From Bradymonadia bacterium (GTDB lineage Bacteria; Myxococcota_A; Bradymonadia; UBA7976; UBA1532), in assembly GCA_046290225.1 (NCBI GenBank), contig JBKAGE010000039.1, forward strand, positions 1 to 64,000: DNA of 64,000 bases, written 5' to 3'. Position numbers and translations under genes: made by a program. Positions 1-17,363 of the stretch are shown here, one piece after another (the first letter of the stretch is position 1; every line of letters starts with the position of its first letter). A model generated the notes under the pieces. That model did no database searches. It worked only from the letters and a program-made list of their open reading frames with translations, and had not been told where the DNA came from.

Positions 1-179
1 TTACGCAGGGGAGCGAGCAAACAAGGCGAAGCCTTGAGCGACCCTGCCTACCCGGGAAGGTGCCTGCCTCAGCAGGTGCCTGAACGTGTACGCGACCGAT
101 GAGGCGGCCCGAAGGGCTGCCGAAGGCCAGGCGCCTACGCAGGCGGAGCGCAGCGACGACTGCCTACCAGGGCCCAGCC
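1..179 (+). repeat. ~180-bp structured intergenic repeat, copy 1 (REP-like; similarity to copy 3 extends loosely to ~210)
   Basis: Collinear with 16570-16748 (5 substitutions in 179 nt) and homologous to the reverse complement of 16256-16432; several hairpins such as CAAGGC-GAA-GCCTTG. Confidence 0.95.
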
Positions 180-272
180 GCAACGCCCATCACTGCCCAA
201 TTCAACGCCCGCCCAGGGCTCCAAAGATCCCGTAGCAATGCCAAACCGCCATCTGTAGCACTGCAGCAATAC

Positions 273-1085
273 TCAGAGCCCGAACTGCCCCTTGATCCCA
301 CCGATGAAGGTCGCATCATCCTGGGCCTTGCGCGCATCGAGCAACATCTCGGCGTCGTCGCCGGCCCGGTAACGCAACGTGTTGGTGCCGTCAGTGGTGG
401 CCGTGTAGATCACCTCAGCCACCAGGCTGGCCTCAGATCCCCCAGTCATCTGGCTCCAGGCGCCCATGAGCTTCTGGATCACCGGCTGGTACTCCGCCAT
501 GGACTCATCGTTGGCGAAGTCGAAGGACCGACCGCCGAAGTCGGTTTTGATCATGCCCGGTTCGACGATCTTCACCTTCACCCCAATGGCAGCCATCTCA
601 TAGTGCAGAGCCTCGGAGATGCCCTCCACTGCGAACTTGGTGCCGTGGTACAGCGCTCCGAGGGGGAAGGTCATCTGCCCGCCGATGGAGCTGATGTTCA
701 CGATGGTGCCCGCCTTGCGGCTGCGGAAGTGCGGGATCACCCCCTTGGTGGTCTCGATGAGGCCGAGGACGTTGGTGTCGAACTGGCGGCGCACGCGATC
801 CATGTCAAAGGCCTCGAGGGGCCCATAGGCGCCGTAGCCGGCGTTGTTCAGCAGCACGTCGATGCCACCGAAGCGCTCGATGCCCTCAGAGACTGCGGCT
901 GAGATCGAGTCGGCGTCCGTAACGTCGAGGCGTGTGACGAGCACATTGTCGAGGGCAGCGAGCTCTGCCCCCTTCGAAGGGGTGCGCATGGTGGCGATGA
1001 CGTTCCAGCCCTTGCTCTGGAACAGCTCCGCGGTGGCCTTGCCAATGCCAGTGGATGCGCCGGTGATGAGGATGGTCTTGCTCAT
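273..1085 (-). CDS. SDR family oxidoreductase
   Basis: TGASTGIG, NNAGYG and YHGTK motifs; start placed at MSKTIL after an AGGAG RBS. Confidence 0.93.
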   Translation of the reverse strand: MSKTILITGASTGIGKATAELFQSKGWNVIATMRTPSKGAELAALDNVLVTRLDVTDADSISAAVSEGIERFGGIDVLLNNAGYGAYGPLEAFDMDRVRRQFDTNVLGLIETTKGVIPHFRSRKAGTIVNISSIGGQMTFPLGALYHGTKFAVEGISEALHYEMAAIGVKVKIVEPGMIKTDFGGRSFDFANDESMAEYQPVIQKLMGAWSQMTGGSEASLVAEVIYTATTDGTNTLRYRAGDDAEMLLDARKAQDDATFIGGIKGQFGL

Positions 1086-1159
1086 GGGGGTTCTCCTGTG
1101 TCGTCGTGGATGAGGCAGCGAGGAGAATCTAACCAGAGAGAGGCCCAGGGGGATATGCC

Positions 1160-1189
1160 GATCGCGCCGACCTGCCATCAGATCGCGCC
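1160..1189. promoter_or_regulatory. Direct repeat GATCGCGCC with 21-bp period upstream of the SDR gene (AraC-type spacing)
   Basis: GATCGCGCC at 1160-1168 and 1181-1189. Confidence 0.4.
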
Positions 1190-1311
1190 AAGGTGATCGG
1201 GGAGGCGCCCGCTGGGGGAGTATCTGAAGTGGCCAAGGGCGTTGGAAGCATGGAACATGGAATGCCCAACTCAGCCAGGGCCCATGTGACGAATTAGGGT
1301 CAAGGAGCACC

Positions 1312-2016
1312 ATGCGTTCACTCAGCCTGTTTGCGATCGCCTGCCTCACCGCCTGCGGCGGCAAAACTCCCGAGGTCAAATCACCTGAAGCGGCTGCGAG
1401 CCAGCCGGCCGCGCAGATGCCCAAGACCGAGGCGGCTGGCGCAATGCCAGCGTCGATGCCTGCGCGGGTACCCTCCATCCTCAGCGGCGCCGAGATCACT
1501 GAGTCTGGCGCCGACAAGCCCACCAGCAACTCGGGGTGTCACTGGTTGTCTGCCGACGGCAAACAGGTGGCTTGCGTGGAGCACATGATCGAGATGGGCT
1601 TCGGTCACTCGAAGGTGCGCATCTTCGACGTGTCCAACCCCGGGAAAGCCCTCTCCGAACATCTCGTCTTCAACGGCGACACTGGCGATGCGAAGAACAT
1701 CAAGCCCGACGCTGTGGCGGCGGTGAATGCTGCCTTCGCCAAGGGCGGCTTCGTCGCCGAGGGCAAGTATGGTGGCGACGGCAAAATCGACCCCAAGGGG
1801 GCGGCAGCCCGGGCCCCGAAACCCTCGGGAGAGCACAGCACGTGCTGCGTCATGAGCCCCAGCTCCACTGTGGCCTTCGAGCGGACCGGCCTCGTGACCA
1901 CCACCTTCGACATCGCGTGCCACTACGGGGCCGAGAAGAGCGCTGGCGCGTGCTACATCAAGGACTACAACGACGAGAGTCACCCCCACGAGGTGGCCTT
2001 CGTCTTCACGCCTTGA
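1312..2016 (+). CDS. Hypothetical lipoprotein
   Basis: AAGGAG RBS, signal peptide with lipobox LTAC, Cys-containing mature part. Confidence 0.8.
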   Translation: MRSLSLFAIACLTACGGKTPEVKSPEAAASQPAAQMPKTEAAGAMPASMPARVPSILSGAEITESGADKPTSNSGCHWLSADGKQVACVEHMIEMGFGHSKVRIFDVSNPGKALSEHLVFNGDTGDAKNIKPDAVAAVNAAFAKGGFVAEGKYGGDGKIDPKGAAARAPKPSGEHSTCCVMSPSSTVAFERTGLVTTTFDIACHYGAEKSAGACYIKDYNDESHPHEVAFVFTP

Positions 2017-2025
2017 GCGACCTGC

Positions 2026-2883
2026 CTACACAGAGGTTCGCCGCCACAGCGCGGGCAACCCCCTGAGCAACAACAGCAGCGCGCCGCCGACAGCCACCAG
2101 GGCAAGCGAGAGCACCACCGCCAGACGCACGTCGGACTCGAGAGCGGTGAAGATGGCCAGGGGCATGGTCTGGGTGGTGCCCGAGAGGTTGCCGGCGAAG
2201 ATCAGCGTGGCGCCGAATTCGCCGAGAGCCCGAGCCCAGGCCATCGAGATCCCCACGAGCAGCCCTGGCAACGCGATGGGCAGCGCGACGCTGAAGAAAG
2301 CCCGGGTCGGCGAGGCGCCGAGGGTGCGGGCGACGACGAGCAGATCGGGGTCGACCTTGCGGAAGGCGTTCGCCGCCCCCTGCACGAAGAACGGCGCCGA
2401 GACCACCACCTGAGCCGTCACCACGGCGGCCTCGGTGAAGGGCAGGGCGAGGCCCCACGCGCTCAACGTCGGGCCCAGGATTCCCTGGCGCCCAAAGGCC
2501 TGCAAGAGCGCGACGCCGATGACCGCTGGAGGGATGATGACGGGCAGACCCACCACGATCTCGGTGGCCCGTACAAAAGGACTGCGGCGGGTGACGAGCC
2601 ACCACGCCAGCGGCGTGCCTGTGACGATGGTGATGGCGAGGCTCACGAGGGTGGTCTTCACGCTGAGCCAGAGGGCAGGGGCGAAGAGCGGGTGACTCAG
2701 CCCCGCCGTGATGTGGGCGCTGTCACTGGAGAGTGCCAGGGCAACGACAGGCAGGGCCAGCACGCCGACGAGGCTCACCGCCAGGAGCGTACCCAGGATC
2801 AGAGCGGGGGGGAGGCTGGGCACAGGGGGATCGATCTCCGGGGTTGGCTCTATTTTCTTAGAGGCACAGATTGAAGGATGCAA
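2026..2883 (-). CDS. modB: Molybdate ABC transporter permease, ModB-like (true start may be GTG at 2823)
   Basis: [18 protein letters not shown] (EAA-loop region), [26 protein letters not shown]. Confidence 0.8.
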
Positions 2884-2969
2884 ACCCCCTGAGGCAGAGT
2901 CAGGCCGGTCACCTGATGAGCAGCGTGGCGAGCATGGGCCAGCTCAGGGCCCCTGGAGAGGTGTAGAAG

Positions 2970-4778
2970 ATGAATCGATGGGGGATCGCGATCCTCGTGT
3001 TGTCACTCTGGGCATGTGACGACGGCGCGACGATCACTCGGCCTGGAGGCAACAGCGACGCTGGCGGAGCCGGAGGCGTCGGAGGCGTCGGAGGCACAGG
3101 TGGAGCGATGGTCGCAGATGCTGCCGTCGATGATCCGGACGCCATGGGTGGCGCCGACGCCATGGCGGGAGATGCGGCGGTCGATGCGCCTGATGCCGAG
3201 GTGGACGAGCGCCCAGACGCCATGACCCCTGCAGATGGCGCAGTGCCTCCAGCTGATGGGGGCATTGAGCCCCAAGAGGTGCCGTTCCAGACTGGCACCG
3301 AGATCGTCACCGCCAGCGGTGAAATTCAAGGCCGCGAAGACGATGAGTTGCGGGTGTTCAAGGGCATCCCCTTCGCCGCGCCTCCGGTGGGCGAGCGACG
3401 TTTCAAGGCGCCGGCTCCCGTGGAGCCCTGGGGCGAGCCCCTCGTCGCTGACGAGTTCGGCCCTTCGTGCCTGCAGGCCGTGGCCCTCAACGACAACGGC
3501 ACCAGCGAAGACTGCCTCACCCTCAATGTATGGGCTCACCAGGACGATGAGCCCAGGCCTGTCATGGTGTGGATCTACGGCGGTGGGTTCATCGTCGGCG
3601 AGACCGCCATGGGCACCTACGACGGAGCCGATCTCGCCCAGTCTGCTGATGTGGTGGTGGTGTCCATCAACTATCGACTGGGCGTGCTGGGCAACCTGGC
3701 CCTGCCGGAGCTGCGCGACGAAGATCCCATGGGCGCGGTGGGGAACATGGGCTTGCTCGATCAGATCGAGGCCCTGCGCTGGGTGAAGGCCAACGCCGCA
3801 GCGTTCGGTGGTGATCCGGAGAACATCACCGTCTTCGGTGAGTCTGCTGGGGCCATCTCCACCTGCGCGTTGATGGGCGCCCCACTCGCCGACGACTTGT
3901 TCCACAAAGCGATCATGCAGAGCGGCAACTGCACCCTGTTCTCGGTGATCGAGGGTGAGGGGTTGCCCGGGGTGCCTGGGGTCTTCGAGTTTGGTGAGCA
4001 GATCGCTGCCGAGGTGGGCTGTGGCGAGGCGGAAGATCGTCTCGCCTGTCTGCGAGAGGCCCCGGCGGAAGATCTCGTGGACGTGCTCGAAGCTGGGGCG
4101 CTGTTGAACATCTTGGACACGGGTGCCCCTCTCGGGTGGACCATCGACGGGGTGGTCTTGCCCCAGATGCCCTACGATCGCATTCGCGCGGGTGAGGCGC
4201 CCGAGCGACCGGTCATCGCCGGGAGCAATGGCAACGAAGGCTTCATCTTCACCCTCGGGCAAGATGTGCCCAGCAGAGAGGCGTTCCGCGATTTGCTGGC
4301 GCCGATCTTCGGTGGCCCCGAGGCGGCCCAACAGATCGTCGACCTCTACCCACGGGCTGTGTATCCGCTCTCGAAAGACGCCTTTACGGCCTTCATGGGA
4401 GAGTGGCTGTTCAATTGCAACGGCTATCACATGGTGCGATCGCTCGACGGCCTCGGCTATGCCTATGAGTTGCGTGTCGGGCCGCCCTTGCTCATGACGC
4501 CCTATGGCCCCATGCACGCTGCAGATCTGTTCTATGTGTTCGGGAACTTCCTGCGCAGCCTGATGCTGCCTACTGCGGTGGACCTGGGGCTGAGCCGCAG
4601 GGTGCAGTTGGCCTGGGGCAGTTTTGCCCGCACTGGTGTGCCCACGTGGGAAGGGGGCTGGCCTCCGGCCCGAGCGGAGAACCCGCAGCATTTGAGCATC
4701 GAGATCTTCAGCGAGGTCCGTGACGAGTTCCGGGCCGGGCGATGCGACGCCATGCGGGAGATGGGTGTGCTGCCCTGA
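2970..4778 (+). CDS. Type-B carboxylesterase family lipoprotein
   Basis: FKGIPFA, SEDCLTLNVW, GGGF, GESAG nucleophile; lipobox LWAC-DDG followed by a low-complexity linker. Confidence 0.92.
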   Translation: MNRWGIAILVLSLWACDDGATITRPGGNSDAGGAGGVGGVGGTGGAMVADAAVDDPDAMGGADAMAGDAAVDAPDAEVDERPDAMTPADGAVPPADGGIEPQEVPFQTGTEIVTASGEIQGREDDELRVFKGIPFAAPPVGERRFKAPAPVEPWGEPLVADEFGPSCLQAVALNDNGTSEDCLTLNVWAHQDDEPRPVMVWIYGGGFIVGETAMGTYDGADLAQSADVVVVSINYRLGVLGNLALPELRDEDPMGAVGNMGLLDQIEALRWVKANAAAFGGDPENITVFGESAGAISTCALMGAPLADDLFHKAIMQSGNCTLFSVIEGEGLPGVPGVFEFGEQIAAEVGCGEAEDRLACLREAPAEDLVDVLEAGALLNILDTGAPLGWTIDGVVLPQMPYDRIRAGEAPERPVIAGSNGNEGFIFTLGQDVPSREAFRDLLAPIFGGPEAAQQIVDLYPRAVYPLSKDAFTAFMGEWLFNCNGYHMVRSLDGLGYAYELRVGPPLLMTPYGPMHAADLFYVFGNFLRSLMLPTAVDLGLSRRVQLAWGSFARTGVPTWEGGWPPARAENPQHLSIEIFSEVRDEFRAGRCDAMREMGVLP

Positions 4779-4782
4779 GGGC

Positions 4783-5640
4783 TCAGCTGACCTTGTCTTG
4801 CGTCTTCGTCTCGAAGTCGCTGGCGTCATGGCGCTCGTGTAGCTGCTCCGAGGGGTCACCCCAGGCGCGGTTCACCATGCGACCGCGTTGCGTCGCCGGG
4901 CGCTCGGCGACGAGATCGGTCCACCGCTTCAGGTGGGTGTACTCGTGCACCGACAGGAACTCTGCGGCGTTGTAGATCTGCCCCTGGGCCAACACCCCGT
5001 ACCAGGGCCAGATGGCCATGTCGGCGATGGAGTATTCGTCACCGGCCATGTAGGTGTGATCGGCGAGGTGCCGGTCGAGCACGCTGAGCTGGCGCTTGGC
5101 CTCCATGGCGAAGCGGTTGATGGCGTACTCGATCTTCTCCGGGGCATACGCATAGAAGTGGCCAAAGCCACCGCCGAGGTAAGGGGCGCTCCCCATCTGC
5201 CAAAACAGCCAGTTGAGGCACTCCGTGCGGGCGCGGTGGTCAGTGGGCAGGAACGCCCCGAACTGCTCCGCGAGGTAGAGCAGGATCGAGCCAGATTCGA
5301 AGACCCGCACCGGGGGATCTTGCCGGTGATCGGCGAGCACGGGGATCTTGGAGTTGGGGTTGATGTCGACATAGCCGCTGCCGAACTGGTGCCCCTCGCT
5401 GATGTTGATGATCCAGGCGTCGTACTCGGCACCCTCGTGGCCCAGGGCGAGCAGCTCCTCGAGCATCATGGTGACTTTCACCCCGTTGGGGGTGGCCAGC
5501 GAGTACAGCTGCAGACCGTGCTTGCCCACGGGCAGCTCTTTCTCGTGGGTGGGGCCGGCGATGGGGCGGTTGATGTTGGCGAAGCGGCCGCCACTGCTCT
5601 GATCCCAGGTCCAGACCTTCGGGGGGGTGTACTCGGACAT
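4783..5640 (-). CDS. yghU: Glutathione-dependent disulfide-bond oxidoreductase (GST, YghU type)
   Basis: MSEYTPPKVWTW start, SLATPNG, NPNSKIP, FESGSIL, LHERHDASDF. Confidence 0.92.
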   Translation of the reverse strand: MSEYTPPKVWTWDQSSGGRFANINRPIAGPTHEKELPVGKHGLQLYSLATPNGVKVTMMLEELLALGHEGAEYDAWIINISEGHQFGSGYVDINPNSKIPVLADHRQDPPVRVFESGSILLYLAEQFGAFLPTDHRARTECLNWLFWQMGSAPYLGGGFGHFYAYAPEKIEYAINRFAMEAKRQLSVLDRHLADHTYMAGDEYSIADMAIWPWYGVLAQGQIYNAAEFLSVHEYTHLKRWTDLVAERPATQRGRMVNRAWGDPSEQLHERHDASDFETKTQDKVS

Positions 5641-5817
5641 GTGCTGCCTTTTGAGTGAGGGGTGGTGTGTGCACGGTGTGCCTAAACTGCACCCTCTGAT
5701 GCCTCCGGGCAAGCTGGGGTTCCAAGGTGGTTGAACACCACGACATGAGGGCCCATGCTCGCCTTCGCTCGGGGCATCTGGGCCCCTCGATCTTCTCATT
5801 GGAAAAGGAGCGATCGC

Positions 5818-6255
5818 GTGCAAGCTGATCATCCGCTCGTTCAGCGGACACAGGAATGGTTCGACCGGGTCTGGGGGCGCAAGGAGCTCGCTGCAGTCGA
5901 CGAGATGTGCACCCCCGACGTGAAGGTGCACGGCCTCGGCGGGCCCATGGTGGGTGTGGCCCTCTATCGAGATCACGTGGTGGCGCCGTTCTACGCAGCC
6001 TTCGCTCAGTTCAAGGTGGATCTGCTCGATGCCTTCGTCTGTGACGATCTGGTCTCGATGCGGGTGCGCTACACCATCACGCGCCACTGTGGAGAGCAGG
6101 TGGTCATCGAAGGGGCCGGCTTCGTGCGCTTCGAGGACAATCGCCTCGCCGAGGCATGGAACTACATGGATTTCCTCTCTTTACTGGTGCAGACCGGTGA
6201 TGTGGACGCTGATGTGCTGCCCACGATGTTGGGACGGGAGACCGCTCAGGCCTGA
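5818..6255 (+). CDS. SnoaL-like / ester cyclase family protein
   Basis: NTF2-like pattern (WFDRVW, FYAAF, EAWNYMDFLSLLVQ); AAGGAG before GTG. Confidence 0.75.
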   Translation: MQADHPLVQRTQEWFDRVWGRKELAAVDEMCTPDVKVHGLGGPMVGVALYRDHVVAPFYAAFAQFKVDLLDAFVCDDLVSMRVRYTITRHCGEQVVIEGAGFVRFEDNRLAEAWNYMDFLSLLVQTGDVDADVLPTMLGRETAQA

Positions 6256-6296
6256 ATCGTACTGGGCTGAATCGTACTGGGCTGAATTGTACTGGG
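6252..6296 (+). repeat. Tandem repeat 3 x 15 bp CTGAAT(C/T)GTACTGGG
   Basis: Units at 6252, 6267, 6282. Confidence 0.92.
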
Positions 6297-6359
6297 TGTG
6301 AGCCTTCTGCTGCTCTGGTGCATCTCTGATGTCCTGATCTCAACGGAGAGAGTTGGTCT

Positions 6360-7553
6360 GTGCGTCAGAACGAGTTTGTCGCCCTCATGGCGCTCTTGAT
6401 GTCCTTCGTGGCGTTGTCCATCGACGCCATGCTCCCCGCCCTCGGGCACATCAGCGTCAGCCTCGGCATCACCAACGCCAACGACGTGCAGTGGGTGATC
6501 ACCTCGATCTTTCTGGGCATGAGCGTGGGGCTGTTGCTCTACGGACCGCTTTCCGATGCCTATGGCCGAAAGCCCGCCATCTATCTCGGTGTATCGATCT
6601 TCCTCGTGGGGTGTGTGCTCTCGTACCTGTCGGGCAGTTTCGAGGTCATGCTCGCAGGCAGGGTGCTGCAGGGCCTCGGCGCAGCCTCGGCCCGGGTCGT
6701 CACCACGGCGCTGATCCGCGATCGATTCGAAGGCAATCAGATGGCGCGGATCATGTCGCTCATCGTGCTGATCTTCATCCTGGTGCCGGCGCTGGCCCCC
6801 ATGATCGGCCAGGGCATTCTGCTGATCGGCGACTGGCGGGACATCTTCGCCTTCATGATGGCTCTGGGGCTCGTGGGGGTGAGCTGGTTCGCCATCCGAC
6901 AGGAGGAGACGCTCCCCAAAGCGCGCCGGCTGCCTTTCTCGCTGCCCACAATGATGGCCGGGGCCCGAGAGACCCTCAGCCACCCCGTGGCGAGGGGGTT
7001 CACGCTGGCTTCGGGCCTCGTCTTCGGGGCCTTCATCGGCTACCTCGTCTCGGCCCAACAGATTCTACAGGTGCAATACGCACTGGGTGAGCGCTTTCCG
7101 TATGCCTTCGGAGGTTTGGCGCTGTGTGTCGGCGGGGCGTCTTACGTCAACTCGCGGTGGGTGGAGTCGGTGGGCATGCTCAAGGTGTGCGTGCTCTCGC
7201 TCAAGGGCCTCTCAGCCCTGGCGGTGGCTTTCGTGGGCGTCGCCGTGGCCTTCGACGGCCACCCGCCGATGGTGGCCTTCTTGTTGTACCTCGGGGGCAC
7301 CTTCTTCTGCTTCGGGCTGCTCTATGGGAACTTCAACGCGCTGGCCGTTCAGCCCATGGGGCACATCGCCGGCATCGCCAGCTCGATCATCGCCGCCGTG
7401 CAGACGCTGCTCTCCGTGCTCCTCGGCGGGCTCATCGGTGGCAGCTACAACGGTACGGTGCTGCCTCTGGTGCTCGGGTTTCTCGTGCTCGGCATCGCGG
7501 CGTTGGCGTTGACGACCAGGGTGGGGCGTCTGCACATGACCCCCGAAGGATGA
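6360..7553 (+). CDS. Bcr/CflA family MFS efflux transporter
   Basis: LSIDAMLPAL, GPLSDAYGRKP motif A, about 12 hydrophobic segments. Confidence 0.92.
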   Translation: MRQNEFVALMALLMSFVALSIDAMLPALGHISVSLGITNANDVQWVITSIFLGMSVGLLLYGPLSDAYGRKPAIYLGVSIFLVGCVLSYLSGSFEVMLAGRVLQGLGAASARVVTTALIRDRFEGNQMARIMSLIVLIFILVPALAPMIGQGILLIGDWRDIFAFMMALGLVGVSWFAIRQEETLPKARRLPFSLPTMMAGARETLSHPVARGFTLASGLVFGAFIGYLVSAQQILQVQYALGERFPYAFGGLALCVGGASYVNSRWVESVGMLKVCVLSLKGLSALAVAFVGVAVAFDGHPPMVAFLLYLGGTFFCFGLLYGNFNALAVQPMGHIAGIASSIIAAVQTLLSVLLGGLIGGSYNGTVLPLVLGFLVLGIAALALTTRVGRLHMTPEG

Positions 7554-7566
7554 GACTCGAAGACAG

Positions 7567-8502
7567 ATGGACTGGAACGACGTTCGATACTTCCTCGCCC
7601 TGGCCCGCTTGGGCGCCGTGCGGGCCGCGGGCAAGTCCCTCGGGGTGAGCCACTCCACTGTGGCCCGGCGAGTGGAGGCCCTCGAGGCCGAGCTGGGCAC
7701 TCGACTGTTCGACCGGCACCGCGACGGCTACATGCTCACCGAAGCGGGTGAGCAGATGTTGCCTCGAGCAGAGCGGATCGAAGGTGAGATGGCGGCCCTG
7801 GAGCGGGGTCTGGTGGGGCAGGACGAGCGCCTGTCGGGCCCGGTGAACATCACCTGCAGCGATCACATCATCGCCCGTTTGCTGTTGCCCGAGCTCGAGG
7901 CACTCTCCAGGCAGTATCCCGAGATCGAGGTGCACTTCAGCGTGGACAGTCGCTCGTTCGATCTTTCGCGACGAGAGGCCGACATCGCGATCCGCACCCT
8001 CGTGGTGGACGATCAGCCGCCGCCACACCTCATCGGTCGAAAGGTGGCGCCCCTCGTCATCGCCAACTATGTCGCCCTGGATCATGCAGAGCGGCTCGAT
8101 CCCGAGATCGTCGGCCCGCAGGCGACCCGATGGCTGTCTTTCGAGCCTCGAAAGGCCCATGAGGGCATCATCACCCAGTCTGATTACGCCGATGTGGCGC
8201 CGTGGGGCACCTTCACCACGATGGAGCTCACGTTGGAGGCGGCCCTCGTTGGTCTGGGGCTGGCCATGCTGCCCACCTATGTGGGCGATCCACACCCTGG
8301 CCTTCGGCGTCTACGACACCCAGGCCTGTGGCATCTCGCCGACATCTGGCTCATCTCTCACCCTGATCTCAGGGACAATGCACGCTTCAGAGCCGTCCGG
8401 GCCTGCATTGCCAACTGCCTGAAATTGCATCGAGGTCTCTTTGAAGGAGAAGGGTGGTTCACAGATGGGACAGAGGGTCCCGAAAACGCCCCAGGGGGGT
8501 AG
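7567..8502 (+). CDS. LysR family transcriptional regulator
   Basis: MDWNDVRYFLALAR...STVARRV HTH; LSRREADIAIR. Confidence 0.93.
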   Translation: MDWNDVRYFLALARLGAVRAAGKSLGVSHSTVARRVEALEAELGTRLFDRHRDGYMLTEAGEQMLPRAERIEGEMAALERGLVGQDERLSGPVNITCSDHIIARLLLPELEALSRQYPEIEVHFSVDSRSFDLSRREADIAIRTLVVDDQPPPHLIGRKVAPLVIANYVALDHAERLDPEIVGPQATRWLSFEPRKAHEGIITQSDYADVAPWGTFTTMELTLEAALVGLGLAMLPTYVGDPHPGLRRLRHPGLWHLADIWLISHPDLRDNARFRAVRACIANCLKLHRGLFEGEGWFTDGTEGPENAPGG

Positions 8503-8552
8503 AGAGATTCGGCGCTAACCTCACTCTCGTCCACTGATGAGAGGAGCCAGCC

Positions 8553-9191
8553 ATGGCCAACGCCGCTTTCTGGGACAACATCGCTGAAGGCTATGCCGCC
8601 AAGCCCGTGGAGAACCCCGAGGCCTTCGAGCGCAAGATCGTCATCACGAAGGGCCTGATGCGCGCCGAAGATGTGGTGCTCGACATCGGCTGTGGCACCG
8701 GCTCTCTGGCCCTGCGCCTCGCTGACTCCGGTGGCCACCTGCACGGCCTCGACATCTCGAAGGAGATGATCCGCATCGCCCGAGGCAAGGCCACCGACCA
8801 GCAGGTGGGCAACGTCAGCTTCCACGTGGGGCCCTTCGACGACACCTTCACCGTATTCGAGCCCGGCAGCCTCGACGGCATCTGCGCCTACAGCCTGCTG
8901 CACCTCGTCGCTGACCGGCCAGGCGCGTTGAGGCAGATCTTCGAGCTGATCAAGCCAGGTGGGTTCTTTGTGTCGTCGACGGTGTGCTTGGGGAACACGT
9001 GGGTGCCCTTTGGCCCGATCCTCACGGTGATGCGCTGGATGGGCAAGGCCCCCGACATCGTGCGCAGCGTCTCGACCGATACGCTGGTGGCCGAGGTGAA
9101 GGCGGCGGGCTTCGTCGACGTGCAGCTGCCCGACGTCGGGGCCGAGAAGACTGTCGCCTTCATGGTGGCGAAGAAGCCGGAGGTGAAGTGA
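8553..9191 (+). CDS. Class I SAM-dependent methyltransferase
   Basis: VLDIGCGTG motif I, LDISKEM, IKPGG. Confidence 0.92.
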   Translation: MANAAFWDNIAEGYAAKPVENPEAFERKIVITKGLMRAEDVVLDIGCGTGSLALRLADSGGHLHGLDISKEMIRIARGKATDQQVGNVSFHVGPFDDTFTVFEPGSLDGICAYSLLHLVADRPGALRQIFELIKPGGFFVSSTVCLGNTWVPFGPILTVMRWMGKAPDIVRSVSTDTLVAEVKAAGFVDVQLPDVGAEKTVAFMVAKKPEVK

Positions 9192-9259
9192 TGACCACGA
9201 TCTACATGCTCTTTTCCATGGGGCTCTCGGGGATCTTCAAGCGATACTTCGGCCGTTGA
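9191..9259 (+). CDS. Putative 22-aa small protein MTTIYMLFSMGLSGIFKRYFGR
   Basis: TGATG stop/start overlap with the methyltransferase, GGAGGTG RBS, fills the gap before the next gene. Confidence 0.45.
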   Translation: MTTIYMLFSMGLSGIFKRYFGR

Positions 9260-9282
9260 AGGCAGCATGAAACCGAGGAGCC

Positions 9283-9939
9283 GTGATGAAGTGCCTGTGC
9301 GTGCCGGGTCTCGCCTGCAGCAGTGACATCTTCGAAGCCGCCGCCGAGCACCTGCCCGGGCTGAGTGTTCACGCCGTGGACTGGCCGTTGCCCGAGCGCA
9401 TCACCACGATGGACGCAACGGCTTTCTGGGTGGCAGAGCAGATCGAGGCCACTGGGGCCGAGGTCGTCATCGGCCACAGCCTCGGAGGCCTCGCGGCGCT
9501 GCACCTGTACGCCATCGCTCCCGAGCGCATGACTGCGCGCCTCTTCATCGCCGACACGTTCCTCGCGGGGCCTCACCCCATGTTCCGGAACTTTCTGTGG
9601 CAACCTCCACAGCCGCTCGAAGCCCGCGTGCACCAGATGCTCGACACCCTGAGGCCGAAGTTCCCTGTGCTCAGAGAAGCGGTCATGGGCTTCGAGGAGA
9701 CGCCCACATGGCGTGAAGCGGCGCTGAAGTCCGGGGCCATCTTCATCTATGGCGGACGCGGCGGTGAGGTCTCCGATGACGAGCTGGCCCGTCGGGCAGG
9801 GATCCCGGAGGGCGCCACCAACACCGTGCACGTGGTGCCCGGGACCTCGCACTTCCTGATGCTCGAAGCCCCCGAGGCTTTCTATGGCCACATCCGTGAG
9901 GCGGTTCAAGCGAGCGATCAGGGCGTTGAAGGCGGGTGA
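9283..9939 (+). CDS. Alpha/beta fold hydrolase
   Basis: GHSLGG nucleophile elbow; SHFLMLEAPE catalytic His. Confidence 0.85.
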   Translation: MMKCLCVPGLACSSDIFEAAAEHLPGLSVHAVDWPLPERITTMDATAFWVAEQIEATGAEVVIGHSLGGLAALHLYAIAPERMTARLFIADTFLAGPHPMFRNFLWQPPQPLEARVHQMLDTLRPKFPVLREAVMGFEETPTWREAALKSGAIFIYGGRGGEVSDDELARRAGIPEGATNTVHVVPGTSHFLMLEAPEAFYGHIREAVQASDQGVEGG

Positions 9940-11360
9940 TAGACGAGGGTGATCTTCGACGGGGCCCCTTCGATACCCTGAGTGTTCACTGCCCGAATGG
10001 TGAGGGTGTTCTCACCTGGTGAGAGATCCCAGGTGTGGTGAGCGCCCTCGATGCGGGCGCCGTTCACCGTGAAGTGGCTGAAGCTCGGCGTGTTGTGACT
10101 CAGCTTGAGCTCGAGCTGAGCCCCCTGGGGAGCGACCTCGATGTGCACGCTGTTGAGCAGGGGATAGAGGGGGTCAGCGTCGGTGATGATGTCCACGCCT
10201 TCGAGGGGGGCGCCTTGAAACAGCAGCTCCGGAGTCACCCCATGCGGGAGCAAAAACGACTTTGCCGTTGATGACTTCTCTGCGTGTGCGGGGTTTTTGT
10301 CGAAGATGCGATTGTCGTGGGCGAGCTGGAACGCGTGGAAGTAGCTGAGCCACATCTCCCGGTTAGGGGGCTTGGGCATCCAGGTGGAACCACCGTGCAC
10401 CAGCTCGATCTCTCCGGCTTTGCCGCGATGTCGGAGCATCTGCACTTGCCGAGCGCTCAGAGGACGCCCTTCATGGGTCCAGTACGCGTTGTTCTGGCCA
10501 TCGACGGCCACCCACTGCCGGAGGTCATCGTTCCAGACCTCCGAGATCACGTGACCCTTGCCGGTGCCGTAGGACATACCCGCCTGTCGCAGGCTCACCA
10601 CTCGGGCGGGGTATCCCAGGGCGTTGAGGGCCTGGGCGAGCACGATGCTGTACTCCACACAACGAAACCGGGCGCCCTCCTGCACCGCGTGCAGAATGTC
10701 GAGGGCGTTGGGTGAGACCGGCTCGTTGAGGCCGCTGTGGGCCCAGCGATCGTGCACCCACGCCAGCACCGCGGTGTGGGCTTCGAGCTGGGTTCTGGTG
10801 TTGGCCACGAGGGCGGGCAGATCGAACTCTTCTCGGAGCGCCTGGGCGTTCGCCGATGCCATCTCGTCGAAGCGCAGCATCGAAGAGGAGAGGCTGGGGT
10901 TCTCCCACGTGGTGATCTCGTAGACCTTCAGCCGTGTTCGGGCCTCGCGCATGGTCCTGAGGGCCGCGGTGAAGCGAGGGCTCTGGCGAATCAGGGCCAG
11001 ATCATCATCTTTCGCGGTGTGCTCCGCTTCGGTCCAGCCAGTCTTCGACGCAGCTTCGAGGGCGTCGAGGGCTTGCTCGGCCCGACCGGCGCGGCCATGG
11101 ACACAGGCCACTCCATAGTGAACCCGCCCGCGGAAGTCTCTCAGCTTGGGCGGGAACTCCAGGGTGAGCATCTGCTCGTAGGCCTTCAGCAGGGCCTCTT
11201 CGTCCCCAGCTTTGCGGGCAGCCTTGGCCTGGGTGTCGAGGGCCACGAGGGTGTCGAGCACCTTCTGCCTACCTGCATCCGGCGCGGCGCCACAGGCTGG
11301 GGCAAGGTGAAGAAGCATCAGTGTGAGGAGTGACGTTTTCAAGAGGGATCGAATGCTCAT
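9918..11360 (-). CDS. Secreted TPR + transglutaminase-like (Cys-His-Asp) domain protein
   Basis: Signal peptide; TPR-like YGVACVHG...AL; RCVEYS, GHVISEVW, VAVDG triad pattern. Confidence 0.8.
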   Translation of the reverse strand: MSIRSLLKTSLLTLMLLHLAPACGAAPDAGRQKVLDTLVALDTQAKAARKAGDEEALLKAYEQMLTLEFPPKLRDFRGRVHYGVACVHGRAGRAEQALDALEAASKTGWTEAEHTAKDDDLALIRQSPRFTAALRTMREARTRLKVYEITTWENPSLSSSMLRFDEMASANAQALREEFDLPALVANTRTQLEAHTAVLAWVHDRWAHSGLNEPVSPNALDILHAVQEGARFRCVEYSIVLAQALNALGYPARVVSLRQAGMSYGTGKGHVISEVWNDDLRQWVAVDGQNNAYWTHEGRPLSARQVQMLRHRGKAGEIELVHGGSTWMPKPPNREMWLSYFHAFQLAHDNRIFDKNPAHAEKSSTAKSFLLPHGVTPELLFQGAPLEGVDIITDADPLYPLLNSVHIEVAPQGAQLELKLSHNTPSFSHFTVNGARIEGAHHTWDLSPGENTLTIRAVNTQGIEGAPSKITLVYHPPSTP

Positions 11361-12115
11361 GCTCGGGCCTGCTCTCCCTCCACAGGATCGCCCCCGAGCG
11401 ACTCGATGTAGGCGTCGTAGACAGGGATGCGCGGGCTCTGCAGGCCCAGCCGACGCCAGCATTGCACAGCATCGAGACCCCACATCGCCTCGCCGTAGGC
11501 CTTCAGCGGCTCGGGCACCTCGACGCCATAGGTCTCGAAGCGGGTCACTACGGGGAAGTACACGAAGTCGGCGATGGTGGGATGCCCGAACAGGAAGGGT
11601 CCACCAGAGCGATCCAGGCACGCTGTCCAGATCTCCATGATGCGGTCGATCTCGCGCTGGGTCGGCGCATCAGGCGAAAAGTCGGGCACACGGGCGAAGG
11701 GGTGGCACGAGAGGTGTTGCCGCACGTGCAGAAACCCCGACACCATCTCGCTACAAATCGCCCGAGCTTGAGCGCGATCGAGGGCAGCCTCGGGCCACAA
11801 GCGGGCATCCGGCGCGGCCTCGTGGGCCCACTCGCAGATCGCCAGGCTCTCGTGGATGGGCGCGTCGCCGACCCACAAGACCGGGAACAACCCCGTGACG
11901 CTGCCGAGGGCCCTGCGGTTGGGCAGGTCTTCCAGAGGGCTCAGCCCCCCCGAAGTGGTGCCCTCGGCGGTGTTCTGATGCCCCACCTTCACCGGCGCGG
12001 TGTCGGTGGTGAAGTCGATGCCGGCGTGGGTGAGGGTCAGCCAGGCCCGCATCGACCACGATGAGTACCGCAGTGAGAGGACCGAGAGGGTGAGGGGGTC
12101 AGCGTGCTCGGACAT
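11357..12115 (-). CDS. Glutathione S-transferase family protein
   Basis: YSSWSMRAWL, ESLAICE, FLFGHPTIAD. Confidence 0.9.
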   Translation of the reverse strand: MSEHADPLTLSVLSLRYSSWSMRAWLTLTHAGIDFTTDTAPVKVGHQNTAEGTTSGGLSPLEDLPNRRALGSVTGLFPVLWVGDAPIHESLAICEWAHEAAPDARLWPEAALDRAQARAICSEMVSGFLHVRQHLSCHPFARVPDFSPDAPTQREIDRIMEIWTACLDRSGGPFLFGHPTIADFVYFPVVTRFETYGVEVPEPLKAYGEAMWGLDAVQCWRRLGLQSPRIPVYDAYIESLGGDPVEGEQARA

Positions 12116-12146
12116 GGGCCACCTTCGGATTGGGGTGGACCGGTTA

Positions 12147-12743
12147 TCAGTCGCGGGGTGCCAGGCCGTCAAGGAGCGCGCTGATGCTCAAGGACCAGCG
12201 GCGGGCCATGGATTCGGTGCTCGAACCGAGCCAGCCCGCGCGCTCTTGCGTGGCGAGGCCGATGGCCACGGCGAGCAGGCTGTGGGCGATGTCGGTGTCG
12301 TCGCCAGCGAGCACGCCGGCGTCGATGCACTGCCGAACGCGCTTCAGCAAGAAGCGTCGCATGACATCTCCGGCGTGGAGCTCGGCCTGATCAGGCACGA
12401 AGGCCATGAAGGGCCGCGAGAACATCAACTCGCCGAGGGCAGGGTGGTCGTGAGCAAAGGCGCGAAAGGCATGCATCGAGGCTTCGAGGTTTGCTCGGGG
12501 GTCGTCGCGCTCCGGGAGCGCGAGCATGCGCTCGCCCAGCATGCGAAACCCTTCGAAGAACAGGGCTCGAATCAGCCCCTCCTTGTCGCCAAAGAGCTCA
12601 TAGATCGCCGGCGGTGACGTGTGGGCGAGGCGGGCGATGCGTCGAGTGGTGCAGGCCGCTTCTCCCTCGGCTTCGAGCAGCTTCAGTGCGGTCTCGAGGA
12701 CGGTGGCCTTGAGCGCAGCATTGCGGAGTTTTGGTCTGGGCAT
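12147..12743 (-). CDS. TetR/AcrR family transcriptional regulator
   Basis: TTRRIARLAHTSPPAIYELFGDKEGL HTH. Confidence 0.92.
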   Translation of the reverse strand: MPRPKLRNAALKATVLETALKLLEAEGEAACTTRRIARLAHTSPPAIYELFGDKEGLIRALFFEGFRMLGERMLALPERDDPRANLEASMHAFRAFAHDHPALGELMFSRPFMAFVPDQAELHAGDVMRRFLLKRVRQCIDAGVLAGDDTDIAHSLLAVAIGLATQERAGWLGSSTESMARRWSLSISALLDGLAPRD

Positions 12744-12794
12744 GGCTCAGCGATGTACCGCAGAACTCTGCAGAGGTCGACCACGTCGCACGGC

Positions 12795-13496
12795 TCACAT
12801 GCCCCGCTGTGTGTGCTCGCGGATGTCAGCCTCGTTGCCCTGTCGGATCGCCTGCAGGGTGGCCTCGCGGGCCCGCCGCTTAGTCTCTGCATGTGCCCGC
12901 ATGTCCAGTGAGGTGAGCTGAGCTGCTCGGGCCATGGCGGCGTCGAACAACGCCTCTGGGGCCACGACCTGATCGAGGAAGCCAGCCTTCAGCGCGCCCT
13001 CCGGATCAAAGGCCTCGGCAAGCACCACCGCCCGCTCGAAATGAGCTGCGGTGAGGCGCTGGCGGCAAATCGCGATGGCCGCTCTGGGCATGGTGAGCCC
13101 GATGGCGACCTCATTGGCCTGGTAGTTGAAATCACCGGAAATGCCGATGCGGTAGTCCGCCGAGAGCGTCAAGAAGGCCCCCATCGCCATGGCGTGCCCC
13201 GGGCAGGCGATCAGCACCGGCGTCCGGTGCTCGAGCAGGCGGGCGGCGAGTTCGAAGCCCGCTTGCAGCATGCCCAGAGTCTGGGCGTTGCCTTGCTTGA
13301 GGATTTTCAGATCGAAGCCTGCAGAGAAGATGCCCGGGCGACCTGTGAGGACCACGACGGCCCCATCAGCCTCCGCCTGATCGAGGGCGCTGTTGATCTC
13401 GGCGATCATCTGCGGTGACAGGGCGTTCACCTTGCCATCGTCGAGGGTGATGCGGGCGATCTTGTGCTCACAGGCATAGTTGACCAGCTGGCTCAC
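12795..13496 (-). CDS. Crotonase/enoyl-CoA hydratase family protein
   Basis: DDGKVNALS, FSAGFDL, GHAMAMGAF. Confidence 0.9.
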   Translation of the reverse strand: MSQLVNYACEHKIARITLDDGKVNALSPQMIAEINSALDQAEADGAVVVLTGRPGIFSAGFDLKILKQGNAQTLGMLQAGFELAARLLEHRTPVLIACPGHAMAMGAFLTLSADYRIGISGDFNYQANEVAIGLTMPRAAIAICRQRLTAAHFERAVVLAEAFDPEGALKAGFLDQVVAPEALFDAAMARAAQLTSLDMRAHAETKRRAREATLQAIRQGNEADIREHTQRGM

Positions 13497-13507
13497 GTTG
13501 TTCTCCT

Positions 13508-13566
13508 GTTTCGTGTTGGTGTTTCGTTCCGATGTTACGAAACGTTGGTACGAAACGAGGCGAAAC
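13508..13566. promoter_or_regulatory. Nested inverted repeat (GTTTCGT x2 / ACGAAAC x2), candidate operator
   Basis: GTTTCGT at 13508 and 13521; ACGAAAC at 13537 and 13550; GCGAAAC at 13560. Confidence 0.65.
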
Positions 13567-13616
13567 TATGCAACCCTTCTCTCTGTGGTGCGTGTTTCGG
13601 GGGGGATACAGGCTGG

Positions 13617-13928
13617 TCAGCCTACAAAGGCGACACCTTCGAGAAGGAGAGCCCGCCAAAGATCTGCGTCGACTTCGGGGATCGAGACCCACTCTTTGAA
13701 GATCTTGCTGCCTGGTCCGAAGGGCTCGCCCTGACCGGCCTCGATCAGCTCGGCCACGCGGGCCTTCGGCAGCTTCACGACGAGGCCAGCGTCTTTGTAG
13801 CCGGTGAGGGCGAGGAACTCTTTGCCCACGTGCAGGCACCGACTTTTCATGATGGTGCCTTCCCGGACTTCGGGATGGGTGGCGTGCAACTCTCCGGCGA
13901 GGTGCCAGAACAACTCTTCGGCGGTCAT
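13617..13928 (-). CDS. Small hypothetical protein (TfoX/YjbR-like)
   Basis: GLVVKLP...GEPF...KEWV pattern; coding-like codon bias. Confidence 0.7.
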   Translation of the reverse strand: MTAEELFWHLAGELHATHPEVREGTIMKSRCLHVGKEFLALTGYKDAGLVVKLPKARVAELIEAGQGEPFGPGSKIFKEWVSIPEVDADLWRALLLEGVAFVG

Positions 13929-13989
13929 GGGGCTCGACTCTCCATTTTCAAGTGAACGTTGAGCCTACGACACTTTGACCACCGCGGGA

Positions 13990-14757
13990 TCAGAGTCTCA
14001 TGCCACCGCTGGCCTCGATGCGCTGCGCGGTGACCCAGCGAGAGTCGTCCGAGGCGAGGAAGGCGGCCACGTCGGCGATGTCTTCTGCGTGGCCGACGCG
14101 ATCGAGGGCGGTGACGCTGCGCATGAACCCGATGCCGTCTTCGGTCTTGAGCCAGGGGTTCATGTCGGTGTCGATGGCCCCCGGTGCGAGGGTGTTCACC
14201 GTGATGCCCCGCTTGCCCAGGTGCTGCGCCAGCACCTGAGTCATGGTGTCGACGGCGCCCTTGGCGGCGCTGTAGGTGACATACTCCGCCATGGAGAACC
14301 GGGTGAGGCCGGTACCGATGTTGATGATCCGACCATTGTCCCGCAGGCGGGGGAGCGCGCGTTGGATGGTGAAGAACACCCCCTTCACGTTGAGGCCGAA
14401 GATGCGATCGAACTCCGCCTCGGTGACGTCTTCGATGAGTGTGTTGCCGATGACCCCGGCGTTGGCCACCAGAATGTCGAGGGTGGGGCTGCCTTCGCCG
14501 AGCAGTCGGTCGACTTCGTGGAAGAGCGCGTTGATGCCGTCGAGGGTGGCGCCATCGGCGCAGATCCCGTGGGCCTCTCCACCTGCGGTGGCCACGGCCT
14601 GCTCCACCTCCGCAGCAGCCGCTGCGTTGCTGCGATACGAGAACAGAACGCGGGCGCCGTCGGCGGCGAGGCGCAGGACCATGGCCCGGCCGAGTCCGCG
14701 GCTCCCGCCAGTGACGAGGGCGGTTTTTCCGGCGAGAGGAAGCTGAGCGCGCTGCAT
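13990..14757 (-). CDS. SDR family oxidoreductase
   Basis: TGGSRGLG, ANAG, YSAAK, PGAIDTDM. Confidence 0.93.
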   Translation of the reverse strand: MQRAQLPLAGKTALVTGGSRGLGRAMVLRLAADGARVLFSYRSNAAAAAEVEQAVATAGGEAHGICADGATLDGINALFHEVDRLLGEGSPTLDILVANAGVIGNTLIEDVTEAEFDRIFGLNVKGVFFTIQRALPRLRDNGRIINIGTGLTRFSMAEYVTYSAAKGAVDTMTQVLAQHLGKRGITVNTLAPGAIDTDMNPWLKTEDGIGFMRSVTALDRVGHAEDIADVAAFLASDDSRWVTAQRIEASGGMRL

Positions 14758-14922
14758 GGGGAACTCCTATAGATGTACGATTTTGCAGAGCCCGGTGATG
14801 GAAGAACTCTGCCTGTGAGTTGTGCTGAGCTGCTTTGACAATGGCGGCAGGGAGCCTCTTGGAGAAGACACGCCGGTGCACAGGGGATATAAAAATACGT
14901 ATATCGATGCTGTGAGTGTTTG

Positions 14923-15837
14923 ATGCCTGATCACACCGTCACGACAGATCCCCTGAGCGCGGCCTCGTGGGACGACCTGCGTACCTTCCTCGCTGTCGTA
15001 CGGACCGGCAGCCTCTCCCGCGCTGCTGAGGCTTTGGGGATCACCCAGCCTACGGTGGGCCGACGTCTCGATCGTCTCGAAGAGGCCTTCGACTTCCCGT
15101 TGATCCGCCGAACAACTCAAGGGTGCACGGCCACGGCCCGTGGTGCTCGCCTCGTCCCTCTGGTGGAGCGCATGCGGGAGGCCGCGGATGGTGTGGCCCG
15201 AGTGGCGTCGTCCACTTCGAATGATCTACAGGGCGTGGTGCGGATCGCAGTGGGCGATCTGATGGCTCGACACATCGCCCGTCACCTGCCCACGTTGCTC
15301 GCCGACGCCCCAGGCCTGCGAGTGGAAGTGGTCTCCGGGCTCGACTTCGTGCAGCTCGAGCGCGGAGAAGCCGACATCGCCATACGTAACCGGGCCCCAG
15401 AGGGGGATCATTGGGTGAAGCGCCCGATGCCAGCGTCTCCATATGCCATCTATGGCAGCCAGGCATACGCAGAAATGCACCCAGACGCCTTCGACGACGA
15501 GAAACGATGGTCGACATGTGCCTGGGTGTCCTTCGAGCGGGGTCGTACGACGGCGACGTCGACTTTCATTCAGGCCAGGGCGACTCACCCACCGGTCGTG
15601 GGCTTCTCCAACTCGTTGTTGATCCTCGAGGCTGCTGCATGTGGGATGGGGCTGACGATGTTGCCGATGTGGCTGGGAGATGATGATCCCCGATTATGCC
15701 GTGTGAGCGATCCGCTGCCTGACTTCGAGATGAGGGGTTTCCTCGTCATGCACCCCAGCGCTCGCCGACTGCGGCGCGTACGTTGGATGGCCTCTCAGCT
15801 GGTGGAGTTGTTCAGCCACACAGAGGAGGTCAGATGA
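14923..15837 (+). CDS. LysR family regulator, divergent from the SDR gene
   Basis: WDDLRTFLAVVRTGSLSRAAEALGITQPTVGRR. Confidence 0.93.
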   Translation: MPDHTVTTDPLSAASWDDLRTFLAVVRTGSLSRAAEALGITQPTVGRRLDRLEEAFDFPLIRRTTQGCTATARGARLVPLVERMREAADGVARVASSTSNDLQGVVRIAVGDLMARHIARHLPTLLADAPGLRVEVVSGLDFVQLERGEADIAIRNRAPEGDHWVKRPMPASPYAIYGSQAYAEMHPDAFDDEKRWSTCAWVSFERGRTTATSTFIQARATHPPVVGFSNSLLILEAAACGMGLTMLPMWLGDDDPRLCRVSDPLPDFEMRGFLVMHPSARRLRRVRWMASQLVELFSHTEEVR

Positions 15838-16244
15838 GGCATGTATACGTCTTCGGCAACGGCAACCTGAGCTTCGAGGCGTTCCTAGAGCACTATGTGA
15901 CGCCCCTCGGATCTTTGTCCCTCGACGAGACACATTTCATCGTGTGCGATTTCCGAGGTGTGGACACCCTCACGATGGAGTACCTCAAGAGCCGGACACC
16001 CTGCGTGACGGTCTTCCACATCGGCGAGCGTCCGCGCTACCTGCCCGACAAGTACAAGACGCGGGTGAGTCAGTGGCAGGTTGTCGGGGGGTTCGAGAGT
16101 GACGAGGCCCGAGATGAAGCGGCGATGACGGCGTGTACTCATTTCCTCGCCATCGATCAGAACACTTCGGCAAAGAGACAAAGCGGCACCTCACGCAATA
16201 TCGAGCGGTGTCTCGCTTTAGCGAAGCTACCTGTAAATCAGTGA
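15834..16244 (+). CDS. Hypothetical protein, possible SLOG (YspA/DprA-like Rossmann) domain
   Basis: ATGA overlap with the LysR stop; VFGNG, DFRGVD, RDEA, SGTSRNI motifs. Confidence 0.6.
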   Translation: MRHVYVFGNGNLSFEAFLEHYVTPLGSLSLDETHFIVCDFRGVDTLTMEYLKSRTPCVTVFHIGERPRYLPDKYKTRVSQWQVVGGFESDEARDEAAMTACTHFLAIDQNTSAKRQSGTSRNIERCLALAKLPVNQ

Positions 16245-16255
16245 GTCTGAGCTTT

Positions 16256-16432
16256 GGCTGGGCCTTTGTAGGCAGTCGTCGCTTCGCTCCGCCTGCGTAG
16301 GCAGCTGCCGACGGCCGGCCTTCGGGCCGCCTTGGAGCTGCGTACACGTCGCCACGCTCGCTGAGGCGAGCAGGCCTCCGGGTAAGCAGGGTCGCTCAAG
16401 GCTTCGCCTTGTTTGCTCGCTCCCCTGCGTAA
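16256..16432 (-). repeat. ~180-bp structured repeat, copy 2 (inverted, more diverged)
   Basis: Reverse complement starts TTACGCAGGGGAGCGAGCAAACAAGGCGAAGCCTTGAGCGACCCTGC and ends GGCCCAGCC like copies 1 and 3. Confidence 0.93.
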
Positions 16433-16569
16433 AAAGTCAGTCTTGGTATGACTTTGCACTGATTCCGGCGCTGTTGGGACTTTCGCCCAGCGCCGGGGCT
16501 CAGAGGCTTGCACGTTCGCGGTAGATCGAATCCCAGCGGGCATGAGCAACAAGATACAGAAGAAGCTCT

Positions 16570-16748
16570 TTACGCAGGGGAGCGAGCAAACAAGGCGAAG
16601 CCTTGAGCGACCCTGCCTACCCGGGAAGGTGCCTGCCTCAGCAGGTGCCTGAACGTGTACGCGACCGACAAGGCGGCCCGAAGGGCTGCCGAAGGCCGGG
16701 AGCCTACGCAGGCGGAGCGCAGCGACGACTGCCTACCAAGGCCCAGCC
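16570..16748 (+). repeat. ~180-bp structured repeat, copy 3
   Basis: 5 substitutions and no indels versus 1-179. Confidence 0.95.
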
Positions 16749-16794
16749 ACAACATTCGTCACTGCCCAAGTCAATCCCAAATCTGTCTCTGAGG

Positions 16795-17355
16795 TCATGA
16801 GCCACTTGGTGCAAACGTGACCACCGAGTAGGCCACGCTCTGCCCCGAGGCCAGGTTGCGGTAGCCGTGTTTCTGGTCACCCCGAAACACCACCACATCA
16901 CCCTCCGACAGCTCGAAACGTTCTCCACCCACCGACAGCTCGATGTGTCCGGACTCGCACGTCAGGTATTCCCGGGTGCCGAACGTGTGCGGGATCCCTG
17001 CCATCGAGCCGCCCACCTCAAAGAGCATTCGCTCGATGTCGAGGCCCGGCATGCTCTCCGGCAGCAGCTTTCGAATACAGACCAGGCCTCGTTGTCGAGT
17101 CGGCAGGGCATCAGCGCGATAGAGCTGCCCCGTGCGCTTCGGGGGCCCGAGCAGCTCGTCCAGGCGCACATGGAGCGCCTCGGCCACCTTGAGCAGCACC
17201 GAGAGTGTGGGGTTGGCGGCGCCGGACTCCACATTGGACCAGGTGGGCCGCGGCACGCCGGCGAGGCGGGCGATTTGGGCCTGAGTAAGACCGCGGGCCT
17301 CTCTCAAGGTGCGGACGTTTTCGGCGAGATGATCAGCGATGTCGTCGTGGCTCAT
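16795..17355 (-). CDS. XRE-family HTH + cupin regulator
   Basis: LREARGLTQAQIA...VESGAANPTL HTH; C-terminal cupin PH...EY...FRGDQKHGYRN. Confidence 0.9.
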   Translation of the reverse strand: MSHDDIADHLAENVRTLREARGLTQAQIARLAGVPRPTWSNVESGAANPTLSVLLKVAEALHVRLDELLGPPKRTGQLYRADALPTRQRGLVCIRKLLPESMPGLDIERMLFEVGGSMAGIPHTFGTREYLTCESGHIELSVGGERFELSEGDVVVFRGDQKHGYRNLASGQSVAYSVVTFAPSGS

Positions 17356-17363
17356 GCTCACAG

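Follow-up and report, generated by a model that had tools for sequence, protein, structure and literature searches.

The closest described counterparts of the repeat analysed here are the GTAG repeats known as REPs, BIMEs and REPINs, together with REPtrons and TIRtrons, and the RAYT transposases associated with them. As portrayed in the available text of PMC3733652, PMC3337134 and PMC8266576, such repeats are extragenic and carry GTAG beside a bulged hairpin, and REPINs are inverted doublets that have GTAG on the outside, fold into one hairpin, combine unlike dimer partners and lack target duplications. The transposase is described as cleaving the folded repeat strand-specifically (PMC8266576, available portion). 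Our locus has the same layout, with 39 extragenic inverted doublets in the genome, predicted to fold into a hairpin, and with GTAG next to 20-40-nt imperfect palindromes, namely modules A and B on the strand opposite the GNA loops. The differences lie in size and content. The element is ~495 bp long compared with 89 bp for the model REPIN of these reports, each arm holds four hairpin modules with shuffled alleles, the core is common to another repeat family, and a gene for a four-helix-bundle protein is the only cargo, with no RAYT found in the genome. Because the defining RAYT test failed, we do not file the family as REPIN in spite of its REPIN-like layout.

The cargo gene invites comparison with intervening sequences (IVSs) of 23S rRNA. 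According to the available part of PMC4990558, the S23p family (PF05635/TIGR02436; structure 2GSC) is the ORF of these IVSs and lies between terminal inverted repeats that form stems cut by RNase III, and mobility of the IVSs was proposed rather than shown. Here a PF05635/TIGR02436 gene between terminal inverted repeats is present in 1 of 39 doublets, where it is frameshifted. Unlike the IVSs described there, the family sits at ordinary gene ends and not in rRNA, has ~200-bp mosaics of DNA-type mini-hairpins in place of a 28-bp stem with heptamers, and has gene-less copies that exceed the gene-bearing one 38:1. Homology has also been described between PF05635 and the Avd protein of diversity-generating retroelements (PMC10053308, available text), whereas the two RVT_1 genes of this genome have their best scores as retron-type and sit on a contig that carries neither PF05635 gene. 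With bacterial MITEs the family shares its non-coding, multi-copy nature and inverted ends; it differs in its ragged ends, its internally structured arms and the lack of target duplication above control. We hold, with about even confidence, that the ~495-bp element is a gene-less, REPIN-like fold-back form of a PF05635 cassette, likely spreading as folded single-stranded DNA.

The fold-back doublet and its copies

The window, a stretch of 64,000 nucleotides at the start of contig C39 of an 8.58-Mb genome with 64% G+C, contains three copies of the repeat with a mean column identity of 88% (Table 1). The original prediction had located all three correctly, and its account of modules A and B, of GCA versus GAA loops and of a compensatory CCTGC/CTCGC stem agrees with ours. 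It also placed the copies just beyond gene 3' ends, and the outer ends do face stop codons at distances of ~12 nt (16244), ~47 nt (16795) and ~94 nt (273). What it misjudged was the unit. The 180-bp repeat is one arm of a ~495-bp fold-back doublet, in which two inverted arms surround a core. Copies 2 and 3 belong together as arms of a single 493-bp element (16256-16748) with a 137-bp core between them, and copy 1 is an arm truncated from its doublet by the contig start.

Table 1. Parts of the repeat in the window and the genes beside it.
Feature	Position	Strand	Remarks
Arm, copy 1	1..179	+	very start of C39; partner arm and core absent from contig
Left arm, copy 2	16256..16432	-	alleles H1 b, H2 a, H3 a
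Core, 137 bp	16433..16569	.	non-coding, asymmetric, conserved; one GNAA-loop hairpin on minus strand
Right arm, copy 3	16570..16748	+	alleles H1 b, H2 c, H3 e
Module A	16574..16620	+	outer stem, two tandem GA/GA mismatches, inner hairpin H1, then CTAC
Hairpin H1	16592-16604	+	GAA loop, inside module A
Hairpin H2	16628..16649	+	three alleles, all with tandem T·G/G·T
Hairpin H3	16672..16690	+	five alleles; GNA triloop
Module B	16708..16736	+	GA/GA-bulged GNA hairpin, then CTAC (GTAG on other strand)
Outer extension	16749..16780	+	ragged, decaying; co-varies between both ends of an element; neither sharp end nor target duplication
Flanking gene	15834..16244	+	no Pfam match; stop codon ~12 nt from left arm; context only
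XRE-HTH/cupin regulator gene	16795..17355	-	converges on doublet; context only
Short-chain dehydrogenase gene	273..1085	-	ends near copy 1; context only

An arm profile built from 84 full-length BLAST hits gave 95 matches in the genome, 86 of them full arms, which is far above chance expectation. Most matches (78 of 95) pair up into the 39 head-to-head doublets. A conserved asymmetric core of 136-139 bp is present in 36 of these; the remaining three comprise one with an unrelated 176-bp element in its core, one fused element and one with a 485-bp gene-bearing spacer. Contig ends coincide with 4 arms, and the fold-back families cover ~0.5% of the genome. The core is homologous to that of a second repeat family, and one hybrid has one arm of each. 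The IHF consensus was found in 0 of 36 cores, and consensus folds of the core were weak and showed no convincing covariation.

The family lies mostly at gene 3' ends. With gene gaps called by a crude gene caller of our own, 18 of the 39 doublets fall between convergent genes, 18 between tandem genes and 3 between divergent genes, while convergent gaps number 520 of 4221 in the genome. The GNA strand of each arm runs toward the neighbouring stop codon, which makes it antisense to the transcript of the converging gene. The outer extension, judged by eye, is G-rich on the side expected of IVS-type PF05635 cassettes, and a heptamer periodicity of the arms is not obvious.

Outside the source genome we did not find the element in 40 relatives by DNA search, in 112 class genomes by core pattern, or in pattern scans of genome-contig (two scans) and metagenome-contig (one scan) collections, all of them searches that may not show near-identical records. 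The further copies for which the original prediction proposed a BLASTN search are present within the genome (86 full arms) and were not found in the 40 relatives. The short pattern GAGCGNAGCGA occurs in all 113 class genomes and does not discriminate. The prediction of novelty agrees with Rfam, which gave no hit on the repeats in window positions 1-20000 (E<=5) or in 5 loci (E<=1). In the literature covered, mainly open-access, no paper tied four-helix-bundle genes to such repeats; the TIR sequences of PMC3733652 lay outside this comparison, and the family may match one of the TIR families described there.

Other fold-back repeats were noted in the same genome. The second family (24 loci, e.g. 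C9:16315, C37 and C75), which shares the core of the 495-bp doublets, has arms in which a CTGTAGCGGAC motif recurs alongside GNA hairpins; the hybrid lies at C82:48470-48781. A third family (36 loci) has arms of GGCACG hexamers, often with GNA mini-hairpins at the ends; one copy (L023, C72:82266-83361) encloses an intact PF05635 gene and another (L049) a DDE transposase. The 176-bp core insertion (C34:360961-361136) has terminal inverted repeats of its own; it occurs again at C78:372744 and is matched in part at other places. A 680-bp palindrome (L050:477-1156; C46:54976-55655) has an AT-richer core between 174-bp arms in which GTA-loop hairpins abound, and a genome-wide survey of inverted repeats gave ~25 loci of 140-170 bp (e.g. 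L051 and L052) that make up an unassigned family of short imperfect palindromes. At L047:646-2453 (C36:153145-154952), 165-bp inverted repeats that overlap the ends of ferredoxin-looking ORFs bracket a gene of the small-multidrug-resistance family together with two small ORFs.

Hairpins, strand asymmetry and allele combinations

Covariation was assessed in 49 of the 86 arms over 39 drawn pairs, with the structure drawn from the same sequences. In this set 97% of cells pair, and both sides vary in 13 of the 39 pairs. The score for covariation was 0.28, whereas shuffles gave 0.12 (0 of 500 reached 0.28) and slid controls no more than 0.057. The number of double-changed pairs alone was not above shuffles (132 of 500 reached 13), and the covarying changes stem from a few alleles, so that these counts are not independent events. 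On the GNA strand G·T/T·G cells outnumber A·C/C·A cells by 103 to 3, and the tandem GA/GA mismatches are retained in 47, 48 and 44 of the 49 arms. A structured repeat with covariation, tandem GA/GA and G-T wobbles on the GNA strand had been predicted from the three window copies, and the larger set upholds each of these points.

In a loop census that parsed 85 of 86 arms for each hairpin, with patterns that fix the closing bases, loops starting with G and ending with A numbered 81 in H1, 68 in H2, 83 in H3 and 85 in module B. Arm loops are mostly GNA or GNNA, and tetraloops are GNYA (76) more often than GNRA (19). The loops of the core hairpin are only GNAA (35 of 36 cores). Across the 86 arms, GCGNAGC/GCGNNAGC hairpin cores number 273 on one strand and 30 on the other, against a genome rate of 0.19 per arm length. 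This type of motif is described as an unusually stable DNA mini-hairpin with a much weaker RNA form (PMC13037366, available text). Selection on folded single-stranded DNA is the best reading of the loops and the strand asymmetry, the folds themselves being predicted. The 86 arms offer a natural alignment that gives a direct view of selection on DNA mini-hairpins.

The folding energies that the original prediction proposed to compare gave a divided result. Single arms folded no better than shuffles in ViennaRNA (z -0.66 and 0.01 as DNA, -1.77 and -0.30 as RNA), while the whole doublet folded far better (z -23.5), as a rod with side hairpins. ViennaRNA has no special energies for sheared G·A pairs or GNA loops, and the single-arm result therefore says little.

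The inner hairpins occur as three alleles of H1, three of H2 and five of H3, and the 35 fully typed elements show 32 distinct module combinations. H1 alleles are unlinked to those of H2 and H3, which are linked to each other. Within one element the arms tend to differ on the inside. Excluding the fused element and one damaged element, the H1 allele is alike in both arms in 4 of 37 elements where 12.5 are expected (P 0.001) and the H2 allele in 7 of 37 where 11.8 are expected (P 0.016), while H3 shows no avoidance of like alleles (5 of 37 compared with 6.5, P 0.33). The outer module-B stem shows the opposite tendency and is alike in 24 of 36 elements where 16.2 are expected (P 0.004). All of these P values are optimistic, as copies share ancestry and H2 and H3 alleles are linked. 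The 30 nt beyond module B are likewise more alike within an element than between elements (0.80/0.65/0.47 compared with 0.69/0.49/0.37). Short palindromes in the genome form a deletion series of collapsed elements, cut inside H1, H2, H3 or module B, and in the fused element, whose arms are joined at H1, the H1 allele is identical to either side. From this we infer that outer ends pair and homogenise and that unlike inner hairpins guard against collapse, although some elements do have long perfect arm matches of up to 167 nt, which speaks against it. A comparable protective role has been proposed for REP heterodimers in the available text of PMC3733652. The combination of like outer ends and unlike inner hairpins provides a measurable rule for the persistence of long palindromes in a bacterial chromosome.

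PF05635 genes between inverted repeats

The gene-bearing doublet (C77:107012-107852) encloses a frameshifted PF05635/TIGR02436 four-helix-bundle gene, the only gene within arms of this family. Its neighbours are protein-coding, so this copy is not in 23S rRNA, and its locus (L021) had no Rfam hit. The second PF05635 gene of the genome is intact, resembles structure 2GSC and lies in arms of the hexamer family, so that 2 of 2 such genes are inside fold-back arms (197 bp and 316 bp, respectively). Among relatives, several PF05635 genes have inverted arms of short repeats and others do not. We fetched 80 metagenomic loci with PF05635 homologues, 55 of which had enough flank to test. Flanking inverted repeats were found at 45 of these 55; the corresponding control counts were 6 of 150 for mismatched pairs and 1 of 150 for small genes from the genome. 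In 41 of the 45 the upstream arm has G>C.

The top metagenomic hit (L073) has a PF05635 gene with GA-GC-GNA-GC-GA hairpins of the same kind and polarity as the doublet arms. It is the single clear case of such mini-hairpins among the 55, most homologues having short arms of heptamer type, and the mini-hairpins in the vicinity of homologues are not biased to one strand overall (12 compared with 9). As a separate observation, the arms at L073:100-680 mix G-rich runs with GA-GC-GNA-GC-GA mini-hairpins and could represent a link from heptamer to mosaic arms. The idea that the core of the doublet is a remnant of a PF05635 gene was rejected, since its similarity score to the gene-bearing spacer (31) equals the 95th percentile of shuffled sequences (31). 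Because the core is unlike this spacer, and the gene in 1 of 39 doublets is broken, it would fit as well that an existing repeat captured the gene.

Under the reading of a fold-back form of a PF05635 cassette, the element would act as single-stranded DNA, with its outer ends pairing to bring both element ends together and its GNA/GNNA mini-hairpins forming a scaffold that resists nucleases. Ragged ends and the lack of a target duplication could result if cutting and joining took place inside the outer stem, and recombination would swap hairpin modules among copies. Arms with unlike inner hairpins would form a branched rod rather than a long perfect palindrome and so survive, while matched arms would collapse into the short palindromes seen in the genome. 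Avd binds nucleic acid, and the Avd-like four-helix-bundle protein may bind the folded arms as an accessory factor. Because this protein has no known catalytic activity, the cutting enzyme would probably belong to the host or act in trans. The repeat had been called structure-selected and probably mobile but non-autonomous; a structured, multi-copy, non-coding repeat with DNA-type mini-hairpins is what we see, and it is likely mobile, with no empty site seen. The sequencing runs gave only small shares, and contigs from 4 of the 10 listed runs yielded only fragments, with no bridging contig, empty site or excision and no information on expression.

More speculatively, and in our view less likely than not, PF05635 genes in inverted repeats could constitute a widespread mobile class without an HUH or DDE transposase of its own. 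The family described here would then be its most elaborate gene-less form, with a protein that recognises a branched rod of single-stranded DNA, the side hairpins of which would be deliberately kept different and exchanged between copies like kit parts. The element supplies a concrete substrate for the unexplained PF05635 protein family.

Candidate enzymes and other explanations

The original prediction linked the repeat to a RAYT, and much of its layout would follow if it were an oversized composite REPIN or BIME whose REP-associated Y1 transposase has since been lost or left unassembled and which captured the PF05635 gene by chance. GTAG stands 5' of bulged hairpins and faces outward in the doublet, the copies are extragenic at gene 3' ends without target duplication, and composite long TIRs of GTAG units, unlike dimer partners and REPtron loss are all on record (PMC3733652, available text). 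Among 27 other genomes of the bacterial family, 9 also have Y1-type genes. No Y1/RAYT gene, however, was found in the assembly with PF01797 (Pfam), with NF047646 (NCBIfam), by tblastn with the Y1 proteins from 28 loci of relatives or with a profile of those proteins. The assembly is rated 99.4% complete but breaks at some repeat copies, so this absence is not absolute. Of the 28 Y1 loci, 3 have short terminal inverted repeats and none has these arms, the gene that does lie between arms is PF05635, and chance capture does not predict that both PF05635 genes sit in fold-back arms. We regard a REPIN that lost its transposase as the main alternative, though an unlikely one. The family raises the question of what spreads REP-like repeats in genomes without a RAYT.

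Other enzymes gave no better candidate. A GIY-YIG gene flanked by copies had also been suggested, but the only match was a 625-aa frame 5.9 kb from the nearest arm, which we rejected. A Y2/IS91 search of the genome had no match, a result that carries no information since its control was silent as well, and no DUF559 gene was found in the genome. No integron integrase scored over the TIGR02249 cut-off in the genome, and an attC cassette array was rejected on this ground and because the arms are inverted rather than tandem.

The repeat might instead act as RNA, as a long hairpin at 3' ends that serves termination, stabilisation or RNase III cutting, in the manner of the ORF-bearing 23S rRNA IVSs, and be spread by recombination. 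Its position just behind stop codons, often between convergent genes, would suit such a role, as would the RNase III-cut stems of PF05635-bearing IVSs (PMC4990558, available part) and the exclusively GNAA loops of the core hairpin. Against this, the triloops and GNYA tetraloops of the arms are a DNA-type motif, the GNA strand is antisense to the converging gene's transcript, and positions 16200-16820 contain no terminator-like or promoter-like site. We consider an RNA role improbable.

Movement by a DDE transposase, as for a classical MITE whose terminal inverted repeats are long, could account for ~40 copies of inverted arms round a non-coding core in a genome that has such transposases. It is made very improbable by the ends, which are ragged and reach 2-64 nt past GTAG, and by target-site duplications that are not above control: 31 of 38 doublets have none and 7 have 3 bp, compared with 30.2 and 5.9 in the control.

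Copying by reverse transcription through the retron-type enzymes of the genome, giving msDNA-like products, is very improbable as well. In its favour, the genome has just two RVT_1 genes, both retron-like, whose ends converge on a collapsed mini-copy, and msDNA-like repeats have reportedly been found in a myxobacterium. Against it, convergent gene ends are the usual site of the family, and the arm and core profiles have no match in the hairpin region upstream of the first RT gene. At the locus of these two genes (L046:5176-8443; C79:178176-181443), the mini-copy lies between them, the first is preceded by a long hairpin, and HEAT/SWIM-looking genes flank the pair, a layout that we take to be that of a type XIII retron.
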